From: Burkholderiaceae bacterium
GTDB taxonomy: Bacteria > Pseudomonadota > Gammaproteobacteria > Burkholderiales > Burkholderiaceae_B
DNA length: 64,000 nucleotides
Reading direction: 5' to 3'
Assembly: GCA_050252075.1 (NCBI GenBank)
Contig: JBFWLP010000003.1
Location: 2,195-66,194, forward strand
Shown here: positions 1 to 36,126 of the stretch, piece by piece
Position numbering within the stretch: position 1 is the first letter of the stretch
How the letters are laid out: every line of letters begins with the position of its first letter
Program-made: the position numbers and the translations under genes
Notes under the pieces: generated by a model
The model's input: the letters and a program-made list of their open reading frames with translations, nothing else
Told to the model about the DNA's origin: nothing
Database searches by the model: none

Positions 1-687
1 GCAGTGGTGGGCGGCGTGGCCGTGCTGGTCATTTCCCATTACATCTATCCCATGATCGCACTCATGCACGCCACACCGTCAGCGGCGCTTACGCGCGGTA
101 TCGGCCTGGTGGCGCTATGCTGTTCGCTGATTGTGGCCGGTCTGATTATTATTGTGCTTATCGATGCCCCCTGGCAACTGTTCAGCCATCACAAGAAGTT
201 GCGTATGTCCCGCCAGGACGTCAAGCAAGAGCACAAGGAAAGTGAAGGCGACCCCTACGTCAAAGGGCGTATACGGCAACAGCAGCGGGCCATGGCCCGC
301 CGGCGCATGATGGCCGAGGTACCCAAGGCCGATGTCGTGATCACCAACCCCACCCACTATGCCGTGGCCCTGTCTTACCAGGAAGGCCAGGGCGGCGCGC
401 CGCGCGTCATTGCCAAGGGGTCGGGGCACCTGGCCGCCCGCATTCGCCAGGTGGGTGTGGAGCATCGCATTCCACTGCTCAGTGCACCGCCGCTGGCCCG
501 CGCCCTGTATCACCATGTCGAGATCGGGCACGAAATTCCCACAGCGCTGTATACCGCGGTGGCCGAGGTGCTGGCATGGGTGTTCCAGCTGCGGCGCTGG
601 AACCCGGTGGTCGGCGAGGCGCCGCCCGAGCCGGTGAATTTGCAGGTTCCCCGCGATCTCGACCCTGAACCGCAAGGTGCCGCATGA
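1..687 (+). CDS. flhB: Flagellar export apparatus protein FlhB (5' truncated at window edge)
   Basis: Frame is open from base 1. Carries the NPTHYAVAL autocleavage motif and a YscU/FlhB-type C-terminal domain. Stop overlaps the flhA ATG (ATGA at 684-687). Confidence 0.9.
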   Translation, partial: AVVGGVAVLVISHYIYPMIALMHATPSAALTRGIGLVALCCSLIVAGLIIIVLIDAPWQLFSHHKKLRMSRQDVKQEHKESEGDPYVKGRIRQQQRAMARRRMMAEVPKADVVITNPTHYAVALSYQEGQGGAPRVIAKGSGHLAARIRQVGVEHRIPLLSAPPLARALYHHVEIGHEIPTALYTAVAEVLAWVFQLRRWNPVVGEAPPEPVNLQVPRDLDPEPQGAA

Positions 688-2798
688 ACGGGTTACTGGC
701 ACTGATCAAGCAGAACGGCTCGGCCCACGCCCGGCTCATGGCCGGCCCGGTCCTGATTCTCATGGTTCTGGCCATGATGATTCTGCCGCTGCCGCCCTTC
801 ATTCTCGACTTGCTGTTCACGTTCAATATTTCCCTGGCCGTCATGATCCTGCTGGTGGCCATGTTCACGAAAAAGCCGCTCGATTTCGCGGCGTTTCCCG
901 CCGTGCTGCTGTTTGCCACGTTGCTGCGCCTGGCGCTGAACGTGGCTTCCACCCGTGTTGTGCTGCTCAACGGCCACGAAGGGCCTGATGCCGCCGGCAA
1001 GGTCATCGAGGCCTTCGGCCATTTTCTGGTGGGCGGCGATTTCGCGGTCGGCATTATTGTTTTCATTATTCTGGTCATTATCAATTTTGTGGTCATTACC
1101 AAGGGGGCGGGGCGTATTGCCGAAGTGGGCGCCCGTTTCACCCTGGATGCCATGCCCGGCAAGCAAATGGCCATCGATGCCGACCTGAACGCCGGCCTGA
1201 TCGGCGAAGAGGAAGCCCGGCGCCGGCGCCTGGAAGTGGCCCAGGAAGCCGAGTTCTACGGCTCCATGGACGGTGCCAGCAAGTTTGTGCGCGGCGATGC
1301 CGTGGCGGGCTTGCTGGTTATGATCATCAATATTATCGGCGGCCTGATCATCGGGGTGGGGTCGCACGATCTGTCTTTCGCCGAAGCCGGTCGCGTGTAT
1401 ACCCTGCTGACCATCGGCGACGGGCTGGTGGCGCAGATACCGGCACTGGTCATTTCCACGGCGGCCGGCGTGGTGGTGTCGCGGGTGGCAACCGACCAGG
1501 ACGTTGGCCAGCAAATGGTGGGCCAACTGTTCAGCAACCCCAATGTGCTGTTCATTACCTCGGGCATCATGGCATTGATGGGGCTGATACCCAATATGCC
1601 GCATGTGGCCTTTTTGCTGCTTGCGGCCGCCATGGCCGGCGGCGGGTGGCTGCTGTACAAGCGCCAGCAGCAGGAGAAGGCCCAAACGGCCCAAGAGCCG
1701 GCGGCCACGCTGGCCGCCGCGCAGGCCGCTGCGGCCGAAGCTACCTGGGACGATGTATCGCTGGTGGATCCCCTGGGGCTGGAAGTGGGCTACCGCTTGA
1801 TCAATCTGGTGGATCACTCGCAGAACGGCGAACTGCTGCATCGTATTCGCAGCCTGCGCAAGAAGTTCGCGCAAGATGTCGGTTTTCTGCCGCCCGTGGT
1901 GCATATCCGCGACAACCTGGAGCTCAAGCCGAACGATTACCGCATTATGCTGTTTGGCGTCGAAGTAGGGCGCGGGGCGGCCGTGCCGGGCCAGTGGCTT
2001 GCCATTGACCCAGGCGGCGTCTCCATGAAACTGCCGGGGGCCGTCACCAAGGATCCCGCCTTTGGGCTGCCGGCGGTGTGGATCGACGTGGAGCTGCGGG
2101 AACAGGCACAGATCGCCGGCTATACCGTGGTAGATGCCAGTACCGTGATCGCCACCCATCTGAACCATTTGATGCATCGCCACAGTGCGCGTCTGCTGGG
2201 CCGTCAGGAAGTTCAGCAATTGCTGGATCACATCGGTCGCGAAGCACCGCAGGTGGTCGAAGACCTGGTGCCGAAAACCGTCAGCATGACGCTGCTGCAA
2301 AAAGTCATGCGCGGCCTGCTCGACGAAGACGTACCCATTCGCGATTTGCGCAGCATTCTGGAAACCATCGCCGAGCACGCCCCCAGGCTGTCGGCCCAGA
2401 ACACGGCGGGTACCGGGCCCGACGCGAACGAATTGCTGCAGCTGGTGCGCGTGTCGCTGGGTCGGGCGATTACCCAGCAATGGTTTGCCGGCGACGACGA
2501 GTTGCGGGTCATCGGGCTGGATCCGCGCCTGGAGCGGGTACTTACGCAGGCGTTGACCACCAGCGGGGCACTCGAACCCGGTCTGGCAGACAGCCTGCTT
2601 ACCGAAGCACAGCGCACCATTCAGTTCCAGGAAGAAAACGGCGATCCGACCGTGCTGGTCGTACCCCCCTTGTTACGTCCGTCATTGGCACGCTTTCTTC
2701 GGCCGAATTTTCCCCAGTTGGGGGTATTGTCGAACGCCGAGCTCCCCGAGGAGCGGCGGCTTAGAATTACTGCAGTGATCGGCGGAGGCGCTTCGTGA
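684..2798 (+). CDS. flhA: Flagellar export gate protein FlhA
   Basis: 704 aa with a multi-TM N-terminus. Conserved GARFTLDAMPGKQMAIDADLNAGLI block and a large cytoplasmic C-domain. Translationally coupled to flhB and flhF. Confidence 0.95.
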   Translation: MNGLLALIKQNGSAHARLMAGPVLILMVLAMMILPLPPFILDLLFTFNISLAVMILLVAMFTKKPLDFAAFPAVLLFATLLRLALNVASTRVVLLNGHEGPDAAGKVIEAFGHFLVGGDFAVGIIVFIILVIINFVVITKGAGRIAEVGARFTLDAMPGKQMAIDADLNAGLIGEEEARRRRLEVAQEAEFYGSMDGASKFVRGDAVAGLLVMIINIIGGLIIGVGSHDLSFAEAGRVYTLLTIGDGLVAQIPALVISTAAGVVVSRVATDQDVGQQMVGQLFSNPNVLFITSGIMALMGLIPNMPHVAFLLLAAAMAGGGWLLYKRQQQEKAQTAQEPAATLAAAQAAAAEATWDDVSLVDPLGLEVGYRLINLVDHSQNGELLHRIRSLRKKFAQDVGFLPPVVHIRDNLELKPNDYRIMLFGVEVGRGAAVPGQWLAIDPGGVSMKLPGAVTKDPAFGLPAVWIDVELREQAQIAGYTVVDASTVIATHLNHLMHRHSARLLGRQEVQQLLDHIGREAPQVVEDLVPKTVSMTLLQKVMRGLLDEDVPIRDLRSILETIAEHAPRLSAQNTAGTGPDANELLQLVRVSLGRAITQQWFAGDDELRVIGLDPRLERVLTQALTTSGALEPGLADSLLTEAQRTIQFQEENGDPTVLVVPPLLRPSLARFLRPNFPQLGVLSNAELPEERRLRITAVIGGGAS

Positions 2799-5251
2799 AC
2801 ATCAGTCGTTTTTTTGGCATCACCAACCGTGAGGCCATGCGCCAGGTTCGGCTGGCGCTCGGTCCCGATGCCCTTATCCTGTCGAACCGTCGCGTCAATG
2901 GCGGCGTCGAGATTCTGGCCACCGATGCCACATCTATGCCGGTCGACGAGGACGGTCAGTGGATCGGTGAATTGCCCTCCCTGACTGAAGCGGACCACAG
3001 CCTGCCCGAGCCCGACACCGATACGCCGTTTTCAGCACCTGCGCCAACGTCTGATACCTGGGTGCCGGCCGGCGAGCCCGAGCCGGTGGCCCCGGCCGAT
3101 GAGCGCGTCGAGCTCATGAGCGCCATTGGCGAGCTGCGCGGCGCGCTGGAAAATCGCATCGACGAACTGATGTGGTCGAATCAGCTGAGCCGCACTCCGC
3201 AGGCTGTGAGTGTGTTCCAGACATTGCTGAGCTGTGGATTCAGCACGGCGCTGCTGCGGGCCATGTTAAAGCGCCTGCCGCAGAATGTGTCGCAACGGGC
3301 GGCGCTCGACTGGGCACGACGTGAGCTGGTCAAGAATCTGCCGGTGCTGGGTGCGGAAGACGCGTTGTGGATCCCCGGACGGGTGCTGGCGCTGGTGGGG
3401 CCCACGGGCGTGGGTAAAACCACCACGGTGGCCAAGCTGGCGGCGCGCTGTGTGCGTCGCCACGGGCCGCAGGGCCTGGTGCTCGTCACTACCGACACCT
3501 ACCGTATCGGCGCGCACGAGCAGCTTAGAATTTACGGCGACATGCTGGGGGTTCCCGTGCACGTGGTGAACAACGCGCACGATCTGGTTCAGGTGATGGC
3601 GACCATCCATCCGGAGCAGACGGTCATCATCGACAATATCGGCATGAGCCAGCGGGATCGCTACATTGCCGACCAGGCCGCCATGCTGGCGGCTTCCACA
3701 CGCCCGGTCGGGCGCCTGCTGGTGCTCAATGCGTCCAGCCAGGGGGACACCCTTGACGAAGTCGCCCGTACCTACAGCAATGACGGCGGAACAGGGCTGC
3801 TCGGCTGCATCATTACCAAAATGGACGAAGCGAGCCGCCCCGGAGCGGCGCTGGATACCGCGATCCGGTACCGGCTGCCCATACATTATGTTTCTGTGGG
3901 CCAGAAGGTGCCCGAAGATCTGGTTTTCCCGCAGGCCGACGACCTGATCGACCAGGCCCTGACACACCGGGCCGGTGCCGGTGGCTTGTATGCCCCGTCG
4001 GAAGCCGATTTTGCGGCGCTGCTTGCCGCATCCCAGGCCACATCCCTGGAAAAAACATCACAAGAAAACGCCCAGCGGCAGCAGTGGCTGCCCATGCTGT
4101 TGTCGGTAACAGGGGCAGGCGCCGGCCTGGACATGGCACAGCTGCGTCTGGCCTGCGATACCCTGGAAGAGCATCTGGCCCCGCGCGAGGCGCTGGGGTT
4201 ATGGCGACACGCCATGGCGCAGTCCGGCACCGAGGCCGGCCACGCCCGGCCCGCCGTCGATATCGACGCCACCTTGCGCCATCTGGCTCGGGTGGTGCAA
4301 CAAATGCACAACGACAAGGCCAACGGCCTGCCGGTCATTGCCGTGCATGATCAGGTGACCTTGCCCGCCAACCTGCAGGGCGGGGGGCGGTTGCGCGCCT
4401 CGCTGCTGTTTTCCGGCCAGGGGCACCCCTGGGCGTCCACCTTGCAGCTTTCCCAGTTGTCGGGCGGTTGGCTGCCTTCCCACGGTGCGGCGTTCCACAC
4501 CCCGTTACCGGCCGTTGAACTGTTGCGGCATCAGGTTTTTCAGCTTGGCCAGCAGCTTGGGAAAACGCCGGTCGTGCATGTGTTCGACGGCGGTTCGCCC
4601 GCCGCGTGGCAAGCCCTGGAAAGCGATGGCGTTGACTGGCTGGCGTTGATCTCACCCACCACACGTGTGTACACCGACGACTGCGCTACGCTGGCCGGTG
4701 CCGTGGCGTTGTCATTGCCGTATCAGCCTCTTACCGATTTCACGGCCTGGCCTGCATTGGTGAACATTGCCAACCGGCCGGCGGCGTCGGTGGTTGTCTG
4801 GGCGGCGGATCAGAGGGTTCAGGTTCAGGCGCGCGGCGTACCGGCGACCACACTGCGTCTGGTGTCGGTGCGCATTGTCGACCGTGAAACCGGTGATCTG
4901 GTTCGCTCCGTGCTGGGGCTGGCCAATGTCGATGAGTCGCGTTTGTCCACCGACACGCTGGCCGCCTGGCTGGTGATGCGCCACGAGGCCAAAATGGTTA
5001 TGCGCCATGCGGCAACGGCCTGGCGTCAACTGGCGGGCCCGCAAGCGCCGGCCTTGCAACGCCAACTGGCCTTGACAGCCGCACAACTGGGGCTGGCTGC
5101 CTGGCAAGTGCAGCAGGATCCAAAACTTGGGTTGGTGCGGCGCGTAGCCATGGCGTTGGTGGGCAAGCGTACATTGCCGGCCTCGCTGGCCGCGCCGGTG
5201 CTGATCAAATTGTTTGCCGCCCGCGACATGGTGGCCGGCGAGGCCGGATAG
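2795..5251 (+). CDS. flhF: Flagellar SRP-type GTPase FlhF with a long uncharacterised C-terminal extension
   Basis: GTG start overlaps the flhA stop (GTGA). N-terminus MNISRFFG..REAMRQVRLALGPDALILSNR is typical of FlhF. GTPase motifs GPTGVGKTTT, TTDTYRIGA, IIDNIG and IITKMDEA are present. Residues about 391-818 have no motif I recognise. Confidence 0.85.
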   Translation: MNISRFFGITNREAMRQVRLALGPDALILSNRRVNGGVEILATDATSMPVDEDGQWIGELPSLTEADHSLPEPDTDTPFSAPAPTSDTWVPAGEPEPVAPADERVELMSAIGELRGALENRIDELMWSNQLSRTPQAVSVFQTLLSCGFSTALLRAMLKRLPQNVSQRAALDWARRELVKNLPVLGAEDALWIPGRVLALVGPTGVGKTTTVAKLAARCVRRHGPQGLVLVTTDTYRIGAHEQLRIYGDMLGVPVHVVNNAHDLVQVMATIHPEQTVIIDNIGMSQRDRYIADQAAMLAASTRPVGRLLVLNASSQGDTLDEVARTYSNDGGTGLLGCIITKMDEASRPGAALDTAIRYRLPIHYVSVGQKVPEDLVFPQADDLIDQALTHRAGAGGLYAPSEADFAALLAASQATSLEKTSQENAQRQQWLPMLLSVTGAGAGLDMAQLRLACDTLEEHLAPREALGLWRHAMAQSGTEAGHARPAVDIDATLRHLARVVQQMHNDKANGLPVIAVHDQVTLPANLQGGGRLRASLLFSGQGHPWASTLQLSQLSGGWLPSHGAAFHTPLPAVELLRHQVFQLGQQLGKTPVVHVFDGGSPAAWQALESDGVDWLALISPTTRVYTDDCATLAGAVALSLPYQPLTDFTAWPALVNIANRPAASVVVWAADQRVQVQARGVPATTLRLVSVRIVDRETGDLVRSVLGLANVDESRLSTDTLAAWLVMRHEAKMVMRHAATAWRQLAGPQAPALQRQLALTAAQLGLAAWQVQQDPKLGLVRRVAMALVGKRTLPASLAAPVLIKLFAARDMVAGEAG

Positions 5252-5311: not shown

Positions 5312-5788
5312 TCAGGCTTTTACTTCGCGTTGCGAGCCGCGCCCCGACGCCGGGGTGGCCCGGCCACGAGCATCGTACAAATTGCCTTGGCCACTAATGG
5401 TACGCAGTGCGTGCAGGGTTTGCTGGTTGTTCTTCAGAAACGTGTCGATGAGCACGCCATTGCTGTTGTTCAGTTCATTGGCCCGGCGTGCCGTGAACAG
5501 CAGCTGGTTCACCACTGGTTCCAGCGTGGGGTGCTGCGCCACAGCGCTTTCCAGCCCCTTGCGCCCCGAGGGGTAACCCATTTGCAGCAGCCAGTACTCG
5601 CGCTGGCGGCCAATGGCGCTGAGACGATCGGCGTAATCGGTTTTCTTTTCCGTGTTGCGGGGAAGCTCGGTTTCGGATTGGGTATTCACCAGAACCTGTG
5701 CTTCTTCTTCCAGCACGCCGATAAATTCACGCGCCAGTTTAAGCTCCTGTTCCAGGCACTGATGCAGGGAAATCAGGGTGGTGCTCAT
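5312..5788 (-). CDS. flgN: Flagellar chaperone FlgN (for FlgK/FlgL)
   Basis: 158 aa, helical and Q/L-rich (MSTTLISLHQCLEQELKLAREFIGVLEEE...). Sits directly after flgM with a 1-nt gap. Confidence 0.8.
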   Translation of the reverse strand: MSTTLISLHQCLEQELKLAREFIGVLEEEAQVLVNTQSETELPRNTEKKTDYADRLSAIGRQREYWLLQMGYPSGRKGLESAVAQHPTLEPVVNQLLFTARRANELNNSNGVLIDTFLKNNQQTLHALRTISGQGNLYDARGRATPASGRGSQREVKA

Positions 5789-35361: not shown

Positions 35362-36126
35362 ATGGCAAGTTCCGAAGACATTCTGGTTGGGCAGTATGCG
35401 CCGCTGGTGCGCCGTTTGGCGTTGCAGCTGGTTTCGCGCTTGCCCCCCAGCGTGGAACTGGATGATCTGATTCAGGCCGGCCTGATGGGTTTGCTGGATG
35501 CCGTTCGGCGCTATCAGGAAATGCCCGAAGCCCAGTTTGAAACGTATGCGTCCACCCGCATACGCGGCGCCATGCTCGACGAACTGCGCAGCCAGGACTG
35601 GCTGCCACGCAGCGCCCGCAGCAAAAGCCGCACCATTGAGCACACCATACAGAAACTTACCCACGAACAGCTGCGGCCGCCGACCGAATCTGAAATTGCC
35701 GGTGCGCTGGGCGTGCCCCTGCCCGACTACCACGCCATGCTCGACGACGCGCGCGGCGTACAAATCGTCCATTACGAGGATCTGGCCCGCAATATCGACG
35801 AGGGGGCGGCGCATCCGCTGGATTTCGGCAGTGACCAGGCCCCGCTGAGCACCCCGTGGGACAACCCGCTAACCGTGCTGGAATCGGCCGGCTTGCGGCA
35901 TGCCCTGGTGGCCGCCATCGGGGCACTGCCCGAACGCGAGCAACTGGTGCTGTCACTGCAATTCGAGCAAGACCTGAACCAGAAAGAAATCGCCGCCGTC
36001 ATGGGCATTACCGAAGGCCGGGTGTCGCAGCTGCGATCCCAGGCCGTGGCCCGGCTGCGTGCCTCGCTGGCCGCAGGGGCATGGGATGAAAGCCCGGGCG
36101 ATGACTTGTTGTCGGGTTTGTTGTAG
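35362..36126 (+). CDS. fliA: Flagellar sigma factor FliA (sigma-28)
   Basis: 254 aa. Region 2 (DDLIQAGLMGLLDAVRRYQ) and region 4 HTH (LNQKEIAAVMGITEGRVSQLRSQAV). Confidence 0.95.
   Translation: MASSEDILVGQYAPLVRRLALQLVSRLPPSVELDDLIQAGLMGLLDAVRRYQEMPEAQFETYASTRIRGAMLDELRSQDWLPRSARSKSRTIEHTIQKLTHEQLRPPTESEIAGALGVPLPDYHAMLDDARGVQIVHYEDLARNIDEGAAHPLDFGSDQAPLSTPWDNPLTVLESAGLRHALVAAIGALPEREQLVLSLQFEQDLNQKEIAAVMGITEGRVSQLRSQAVARLRASLAAGAWDESPGDDLLSGLL

Follow-up and report, generated by a model that had tools for sequence, protein, structure and literature searches.

In the flagellar gene cluster of a Burkholderiaceae bacterium (assembly GCA_050252075.1, contig JBFWLP010000003.1), within a 64,000-nucleotide stretch of DNA that was analysed whole and is called the window here, the GTPase FlhF continues in frame into a C-terminal domain of about 400 residues (the C-domain, residues 420–818). 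We put at roughly 0.75 the probability that this is an exapted Tn5-like transposase domain carried on a genuine long form of FlhF. FlhF and its partner FlhG are the standard model for where and how many flagella bacteria build. A sequence-only reading of the window had described an FlhF open reading frame (ORF) that runs unbroken to residue 818, a recognisable FlhF part that ends near residue 390, and an extension lacking a P-loop, transmembrane segment or repeat. All of this holds: the Pfam SRP54 match is followed by no other, and residue 391 begins at nucleotide 3965.

Structure prediction on the extension, a check proposed in that reading, gives a clear answer. An AlphaFold2 (AF2) model of residues 395–818 built from a 47-sequence alignment is confident (mean predicted local distance difference test (pLDDT) score 90.3, predicted template modelling (pTM) score 0.88), and a full-length AF2 run with a different, 85-sequence alignment yields the same secondary-structure elements. 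Searched against the PDB with Foldseek, the model retrieves Tn5 transposase or its inhibitor as each of the top six matches (4DM0, 1MM8, 1MUH, 3ECP, 1MUS and 1B7E), with E-values of 3.4e-9 to 7e-8, probability 1.0, a template modelling (TM) score of about 0.5 and a root mean square deviation (RMSD) of 9–13 Å; the alignments span 386–489 columns for the five transposase chains and 337 for the truncated inhibitor chain. The next matches, all RNase H-fold proteins (endonuclease V, Argonaute PIWI, piggyBat, Mos1 and Hermes), are weaker by about six orders of magnitude. Among the predicted viral structures in BFVD, the best match is an IS4-family transposase (E 1.8e-5). The predicted structure has the RNase H-like core, the β-insertion before the Glu helix and the helical C terminus of a Tn5-type fold, in an order that we take, by element and not by residue-level superposition, to be the layout of Tn5 transposase. 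Going by these models, residues 395–818 very probably carry a Tn5-like fold.

Pfam returns nothing for 17 C-domains at E-values up to 10, the models DDE_Tnp_1, Tnp_DNA_bind and Dimer_Tnp_Tn5 included, a PDB sequence search with the extension returns nothing, and hhalign comparison with a profile built from Tn5 and 42 IS50-like transposases gives no significant match in global or local mode (P ~0.5). Because sequence methods are blind to the kinship, homology rests on the predicted structure together with local motifs. The best local match in these non-significant alignments pairs PVIAVHDQVTL with ELLAIEDTTSL of Tn5, the strand holding D97, and a longer one runs colinearly for 347 columns, placing VVHVFD on the D188 strand. 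By topology, D519, D598 and E731 occupy the positions of the Asp-Asp-Glu (DDE) triad of Tn5 (here D1, D2 and E), with D1–D2 and D2–E spacings of 79 and 133 residues as against 91 and 138. One histidine directly precedes D1 (H518, D1−1) and another stands three residues ahead of D2 (H595, D2−3); each position is also His in 41 of 43 IS50-like transposases, in the contexts LVLHDTT and VHIGDRE. Descent of the C-domain from an IS50-like transposase is likely.

As far as sampled, the C-domain is confined to one family. A database search with residues 400–818 finds 19 proteins, all FlhFs of 653–983 residues, including an 816-residue homologue that is 97% identical and one protein from Achromobacter. 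An exhaustive HMMER scan with residues 420–818 finds only 65 proteins in 1.84 billion representatives, and its full-length matches are every one 744–1003 residues long with the matching region at the C terminus. About 120 homologous sequences share this colinear architecture. A one-genome-per-species scan, built from five sequences and one pattern ([AGT]LYAP[ST]EAD) and giving a taxon list that is a lower bound, identifies 72 loci with a long flhF. The named loci are all from the Alcaligenaceae, except for one metagenome-assembled genome (MAG) labelled Pseudomonas sp., and the genera represented are Pollutimonas, Pusillimonas, Candidimonas, Eoetvoesiella, Parapusillimonas, Orrella, Neopusillimonas, Castellaniella, Achromobacter and Bordetella. 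Among the best 150 entries of an order-level FlhF survey, in which long forms are under-represented, two genomes of the window's GTDB family but of another genus have short FlhF ORFs (G004, 480 residues; G203, 467 residues), and the long form may thus be missing from part of the family as delimited by GTDB. Long FlhF ORFs also occur in that survey in two genomes of other families (G069, 812 residues; G266, 878 residues). Two records are broken by a pseudogene or a sequencing error: in Paenalcaligenes niemegkensis (L094:10001-12357), sister species of P. hermetiae, the cluster is ordinary and the long flhF is split into parts of 650 and 137 residues, and a Bordetella parapertussis FlhF (P0234, 622 residues) is frameshifted after about residue 460.

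The protein that carries the extension is an FlhF by several measures. It has the conserved N terminus MNISRFFG...GGVEILAT and a B domain, its gene lies next to flhA in a flagellar cluster with the same synteny in related loci, and it scores 221 bits against the NCBIfam FlhF model TIGR03499, for which the cut-off is 174. The best PDB match to the modelled NG domain is Shewanella putrefaciens FlhF (8r9r, TM score 0.90), followed by Bacillus subtilis FlhF (2px0). The full-length AF2 model gives a pLDDT of 92–95 to the strands and helix of residues 3–43 and one below 50 to residues 57–101; the linker after the B domain varies in length across the alignment. The B domain and the GTPase motifs named in the sequence-only reading are all present (GPTGVGKTTT at residues 202–211, DTYRIGA at 234–240 and TKMDEA at 341–346). 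Its observation that the G3 motif reads DNIG (280–283) is true but minor, this being a lineage-typical DxxG variant: among the 83 C-domain-bearing FlhFs with a recognised G3 motif, 59 have DN[VIM]G and 22 have DTTG, and the short Burkholderiales forms without a C-domain have DTIG or DTVG. We rejected DNIG as the mark of a crippled GTPase, since DxxG is intact and the variant spans the whole lineage. A second NCBIfam model of 768 positions, PRK14723, is also named FlhF; residues 2–813 align to its positions 2–766 with 654.7 bits, below the cut-off of 951. On this profile comparison the window FlhF is a divergent member of the PRK14723 long-form architecture. The long form is already catalogued by NCBIfam as an FlhF variant, and its extra part carries no description there.

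IS4 transposases are marked by perfect conservation of the DDE triad and by a Y-(2)-R-(3)-E-(6)-K (YREK) signature (PMC2266710), and both are complete in 43 of 43 IS50-like transposases. The FlhF C-domain family departs from this pattern. D1, the first catalytic Asp, is absent from about 45% of members. Of 119 sequences, 66 have an acidic residue at position 519 and 37 a Gly; all the Bordetella and Achromobacter sequences examined carry Gly there, and the stand-alone genes described below encode Ile or Val. Position 598 is Asp or Glu in 112 sequences and position 731 acidic in 87, and all three positions are acidic in only 62 of the 119, the window protein among them. The YREK signature is not recognisable, as the sequence around E731, AAWLVMRHEAKMVMR, has no Tyr or Arg at the required spacing and R737, at E+6, alone recalls the Lys. 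The C-domain is near neutral (median isoelectric point 6.8, compared with 9.5–9.9 for real transposases). Its N-terminal helical part has a family median net charge of −4, compared with +6 to +7 for the DNA-binding N terminus of Tn5 and one Tn5-like transposase, and the C-terminal helical part, at +8, is the only basic portion. The genome holds one copy of the C-domain and no Tn5-like transposase elsewhere, and the domain occupies the same in-frame site behind flhF across the 72 loci; inverted repeats were not searched for. Because it is single-copy, syntenic and near neutral, with YREK unrecognisable and D1 lost in about 45% of members, the domain looks exapted, and its transposase function appears lost.

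The invariant or nearly invariant residues of the C-domain are W470, H518, H595, W615, W669, R680, R737 and W770 (W470 and H518 each in 118 of 119 sequences, H595 in 113, Arg or Lys at 737 in 117). The last helix has the consensus ALLKLFALKEM, and residues 802–813 rank second in conservation among 12-mers. We rejected this helix as an amphipathic membrane anchor of the MinD/FlhG kind, its hydrophobic moment being 0.01–0.07 where the MinD tail has 0.28. The best conserved of all 12-mers in the extension is a tail motif in the linker, LYAPSEADFAAL (residues 398–409; mean top-residue frequency 0.85, n = 119), which has a pLDDT of 49–68 in both AF2 models. Short FlhFs of Burkholderia and Oxalobacteraceae end in a related acidic-hydrophobic tail, sPFxPxDEDMPxLL, suggesting that the transposase-like domain was added behind a pre-existing tail. 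Judged from its sequence, the tail motif has the look of a short linear interaction motif, with a loose resemblance to DWAxAL and EIDALL, acidic motifs at the N termini of FliN and FliM. Docking of the motif on the NG domain is without support, as its pLDDT stays at 49–58 in the full-length model. The nearby LIDQALTHR (386–393) was rejected as a built-in DQAxxLR activator, since it is the last G-domain helix of all FlhFs, short ones included.

The full-length AF2 model (pTM 0.56) predicts no contact between the C-domain and the NG domain in the monomer, and residues 391–445 have a pLDDT of 49–79; in this model the C-domain is a tethered module. Natural variants separate it further. Three proteins of 362–389 residues consist of the C-domain only, are 41–48% identical to each other and are 45–51% identical to the C-domain of an 800-residue FlhF from a normal che-flhB-flhA-flhF cluster. 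All three genes sit between glpD and an NrtR-like regulator, outside flagellar genes. One of the proteins clusters with a hypothetical protein of Paenalcaligenes hermetiae, and the orphan of the cultured P. hermetiae genome has no flagellar gene within 10 kb. A UniRef record names one orphan 'Nucleotidyltransferase'. In another locus the 735 nucleotides upstream contain a decayed NG remnant with stops and a frameshift (L010:7421-8000), and the C-domain ORF behind it is intact. Immediately after glpD the window's genome has flhD, flhC, motA and motB (contig C76:11412-16275). There glpD borders the start of the flagellar regulon, which accounts for its place beside the orphan in Paenalcaligenes and indicates that the orphan is a leftover after the flagellar cluster was lost from that site: the P. 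hermetiae lineage has lost from it flhDC-mot-che-flhBA together with the 5′ part of flhF and the neighbouring flg genes, and the C-domain alone is left. Between two orphan alleles there are 32 synonymous and 21 non-synonymous differences (ratio of non-synonymous to synonymous rates (dN/dS) 0.17; binomial p = 1.6e-9), a substitution pattern by which the orphan gene is under purifying selection. A further variant occurs on a metagenomic contig (L095:8001-9317), where flhB-flhA is followed by a 438-residue fusion of B domain and C-domain without NG, with tctB-tctA and not flgN downstream. The C-domain thus appears to act as an autonomous module, and selection on the orphan argues that it has a function of its own and is not purely a surrogate for FlhG. 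A further stand-alone candidate, in a MAG (L009, protein P0044), was rejected, as cheB, cheZ, flhB and flhA are also split in that assembly.

The sequence-only reading had further reported that no flhG follows flhF, the next gene being convergent flgN, and that FlhG is encoded beside FlhF elsewhere. Both statements are borne out. In Massilia timonae (L091) and a Burkholderia (L092), flhB-flhA-flhF is followed by flhG (272–273 residues) and then fliA, and the FlhFs, of 458 and 599 residues, have no C-domain. Both FlhGs (L092:6793-7611 and L091:6370-7191) carry a DQAEGLRR activator motif at the N terminus. Their Walker A motifs are degenerate (GGPAGVGCTS; SATPEDDKGAM), and from sequence their ATPase may be inactive. 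A MinD/FlhG-like gene lies within 4 kb of the long flhF in none of the 72 Alcaligenaceae loci; convergent flgN is adjacent in 66, four loci end too early, and L038 and L084 have no flgN match. The whole-genome search for a MinD-like flhG that had been proposed finds none in the 94%-complete assembly of 190 contigs. The proteins there with a deviant Walker A motif (MinD/ParA-type) are only MinD (TIGR01968, 346 bits), ApbC and two ParA partition proteins, the sole further match to Pfam CbiA (MinD/ParA) is a CpaE-like protein, and Burkholderia and Massilia FlhG queries best match ApbC or MinD with an E-value of 0.004 or worse; the same queries have no match in the 72 Alcaligenaceae loci. A cognate FlhG/FleN, a typical but not universal feature of FlhF systems, was therefore not found for the window FlhF. 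In the loci examined the C-domain is seen only where flhG is absent, a correlation that fits the idea, raised in the sequence-only reading, that the extension replaces FlhG control. That idea fares less well on the nature of the domain, which has a Tn5/IS4 fold, is not MinD-like and is selected as an orphan.

Residues 1–390 are an ordinary B-N-G FlhF GTPase, followed by a flexible linker with the ancestral tail motif and by an independently folding segment at 420–818. A possible history of insertion sequence (IS) capture at the flhF/flhG junction is consistent with these data. An IS50-like element would have inserted at the junction in an Alcaligenaceae ancestor, and a rearrangement would have removed flhG, moved fliA and fused the transposase frame to the 3′ end of flhF. 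What selection keeps is the fold, the former active-site pocket (H518, H595, D/E598, E731, R737), the four Trp residues and the last helix. We tentatively propose that the C-domain could be a GTP-independent self-association or partner-binding platform that tethers or pairs FlhF NG domains and would supply the control given elsewhere by FlhG. This proposal draws on analogy with Tn5 transposase, whose dimer is made by C-terminal helices, and the conserved last helix fits it. The selected orphan suggests that the C-domain binds something of value alone, the His-His-Asp/Glu-Glu-Arg pocket being the obvious site.

We think it unlikely that the C-domain is still a nucleic-acid enzyme or binder, with metal and DNA or RNA held in the pocket (plus D519 in the window clade), which would couple FlhF to nucleic acid where the signal recognition particle (SRP) protein Ffh bears its RNA-binding M domain. 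The full set of acidic residues in the window protein and 62 of 119 family members speaks for such a role, and because D519, D598 and E731 are kept in the window clade residual catalysis is possible there. The loss of D1 in the other members, including all Bordetella and Achromobacter proteins examined and the selected orphans, means that the conserved function cannot need the full triad. Conservation is among the highest around the former active site, the C-terminal helices are basic and the second-tier fold matches are endonuclease V and Argonaute PIWI, but the domain is near neutral overall, its former DNA-binding N terminus is acidic, and the YREK signature that all 43 IS50-like transposases retain is unrecognisable. 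Retention of the C-domain by selection without FlhF, and the UniRef name of the orphan, would also fit a nucleic-acid function.

A strict replacement of FlhG, in which the C-domain stimulates or gates the FlhF GTPase in cis, is doubtful. The two features are mutually exclusive in the loci examined (the 72 long loci and the window's own genome, as against the flhG-fliA loci of Massilia and Burkholderia), and the fusion lies exactly at the junction held by flhG elsewhere. Against this, the domain has neither the MinD-like fold nor a Walker A motif nor a DQAxxLR helix, the AF2 monomer with its low-confidence linker places no part of the C-domain on NG, and stand-alone and NG-less variants persist in nature. 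Equally doubtful, to our minds, is an active ligand- or nucleic-acid-binding and possibly catalytic module with a role of its own on a remodelled DDE pocket, which in flagellated Alcaligenaceae would link FlhF to its ligand at the place of the Ffh M domain, would have made FlhG dispensable and would have been kept as a stand-alone gene after local flagellar loss.

Several points weigh against the identity of the C-domain as an exapted transposase or against the platform function proposed for it. No sequence method detects transposase kinship; the equation of D519, D598 and E731 with D97, D188 and E326 is topological, with coordinates not superposed, and hhalign sets E326 two residues off E731; and the window's own clade retains all three acidic residues. 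The monomer model docks neither the C-domain nor the tail motif on NG, the absence of FlhG is judged from a 94%-complete, 190-contig assembly and just two short-FlhF comparators, and the dimerisation or FlhG-surrogate mechanism is an argument by analogy. The orphan gene under selection suggests that the C-domain is useful without FlhF. The lack of significant sequence or profile similarity, a TM score of only about 0.5 with an RMSD of 9–13 Å, and the fact that the structure is a prediction would also suit convergence, or general RNase H-fold ancestry in place of descent from an IS transposase. This is improbable, given that Tn5 transposase or its inhibitor accounts for each of the six best PDB matches, that these alignments take in almost the whole of either protein with E-values about a million times better than those of other RNase H-fold proteins, that an IS4 transposase comes first in the independent BFVD library too, that the N-terminal helical part, β-insertion and helical C terminus succeed one another as they do in Tn5, and that both His residues agree with IS50-like transposases and the D-D-E spacings with Tn5.

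An assembly or frameshift artefact joining flhF to a separate downstream gene, which the sequence-only reading had allowed for, is refuted for practical purposes: split records exist (L009, P. niemegkensis and the frameshifted B. parapertussis FlhF), but the C-domain follows the NG domain in frame and colinearly in 70 of the 72 independent loci, which come from both isolates and MAGs, and in dozens of database proteins, there are a 97%-identical homologue and some 120 other colinear sequences, the L009 assembly splits other genes as well, and NCBIfam holds a model of the long form. The same reading had also allowed for a well-characterised conserved domain, which is half right: the fold is well known, and this use of it is not.

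Table 1. Coordinates of the long flhF gene, its predicted domains and neighbouring genes (positions in the window unless a locus is given).
Feature	Position	Strand	Remarks
flhA	684..2798	+	704 residues, directly upstream of flhF; from translation and an FHIPEP gene at the same place in related loci
flhF, long Alcaligenaceae form	2795..5251	+	818 residues, single uninterrupted ORF
B-domain core, residues 1–45	2795..2929	+	followed by a Pro/Ala-rich disordered linker to about residue 101
NG domain, residues 102–390, SRP-type GTPase	3098..3964	+	Pfam SRP54 at 197–389, E 1.6e-35
G3 motif DNIG, residues 280–283	3632..3643	+	DxxG kept
Tail motif, residues 398–409	3986..4021	+	in flexible linker
C-domain, residues 420–818	4052..5248	+	Tn5/IS4 transposase-like fold predicted by AF2 and Foldseek
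N-terminal helical part, residues 420–507	4052..4315	+	predicted helices 420–437, 447–459, 461–477, 490–507; W470
RNase H-like core, residues 514–619	4334..4651	+	predicted β1-β2-β3-α-β4-α-β5; H518/D519 on β1, H595/D598 on β4
Mainly β insertion, residues 624–710	4664..4924	+	between β5 and Glu helix; predicted strands 624–627, 630–633, 666–679, 682–696, 702–710
C-terminal four-helix part, residues 719–815	4949..5239	+	predicted helices 719–746, 752–774, 776–789, 796–815; E731 and R737 on the first
flgN	5312..5788	−	convergent with flhF, in the place held by flhG-fliA in Burkholderia and Massilia; PF05130, E 4e-26
fliA (sigma-28)	35362..36126	+	about 30 kb from flhF; ORF plus tblastn with Burkholderia FliA
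Stand-alone C-domain genes	L093:10001-11170 (Paenalcaligenes hermetiae; 389 residues, WP_345371241.1); L010:8001-9146; L011:4834-5922; L008:325-1494		

The flhA stop overlaps the GTG start of flhF, and FlhA is 64–86% identical to its counterparts in the 72 related loci (tblastn). Only 60 nucleotides separate the flhF stop codon from flgN. Burkholderia FliA matches the window at 35368-36084 (contig C3:37562-38278) with 54% identity (tblastn, E 1e-70).

We found no paper on an FlhF with a transposase-like domain, nor on FlhF/FlhG in the Alcaligenaceae. The FlhF of Achromobacter xylosoxidans, of 937 residues, is annotated with FlhF and SRP54 domains only in a 2026 preprint, where its AlphaFold model is described without comment as having 'four distinct structures' (10.1101/2025.07.29.667465). 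What is new here is the identity of the extension as a Tn5-type transposase-like domain; the long form itself is already in NCBIfam. In a whole family, Bordetella and Achromobacter included, FlhF bears an additional domain, and flhG was not found beside it in the 72 loci or anywhere in the searched genome. The tamed-transposase identity offers a testable idea for FlhG-independent control of FlhF, namely that FlhF self-associates or binds a partner by way of a known fold. The B-NG-C, B-C and C-alone variants in related bacteria form a natural experiment that separates the function of the C-domain from that of the GTPase. The finding also hints at a route of locus rearrangement, IS insertion at the flhF/flhG junction. 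To our knowledge there are few bacterial cases in which a DDE transposase has been recruited into a host protein for a role other than transposition.

The window protein resembles the FlhFs of B. subtilis (2PX0 and 2PX3) and S. putrefaciens (8R9R) in its B-N-G architecture with G1–G5 and in the position of its gene directly after flhB-flhA. It differs from them in the separate domain formed by some 400 additional C-terminal residues, in a G3 motif of DN[IV]G where they have DT[AIV]G, in a fliA that lies 30 kb off and is not adjacent, and in the FlhG partner that was not found. Bordetella and Achromobacter are peritrichous and FlhDC-controlled, and the window genome itself carries flhDC. To FlhG/FleN the C-domain is comparable in filling the genomic slot that flhG holds in Burkholderia and Massilia, and possibly in function, whereas its fold is unrelated and it has no Walker A motif, DQAxxLR motif or amphipathic membrane-targeting helix.

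Tn5 (IS50) transposase and its inhibitor (1MUH, 1MM8, 1MUS, 3ECP, 4DM0 and 1B7E) share with the C-domain the predicted fold over nearly its whole length and similarly spaced acidic residues at the D-D-E positions given by topology; the His beside D1 and the one beside D2 are shared with IS50-like transposases. Unlike Tn5, the C-domain has no detectable sequence similarity to transposases, an unconserved D1 and no recognisable YREK signature, and it is near neutral, not mobile and fused behind a GTPase. The domesticated DDE transposases PiggyMac and THAP9 are eukaryotic, and PiggyMac still cuts DNA. As in these proteins, the transposase core of the C-domain is fixed at one locus and under purifying selection for a host function; in contrast to them, it is bacterial and fused to a flagellar GTPase, and its catalytic triad is dispensable.

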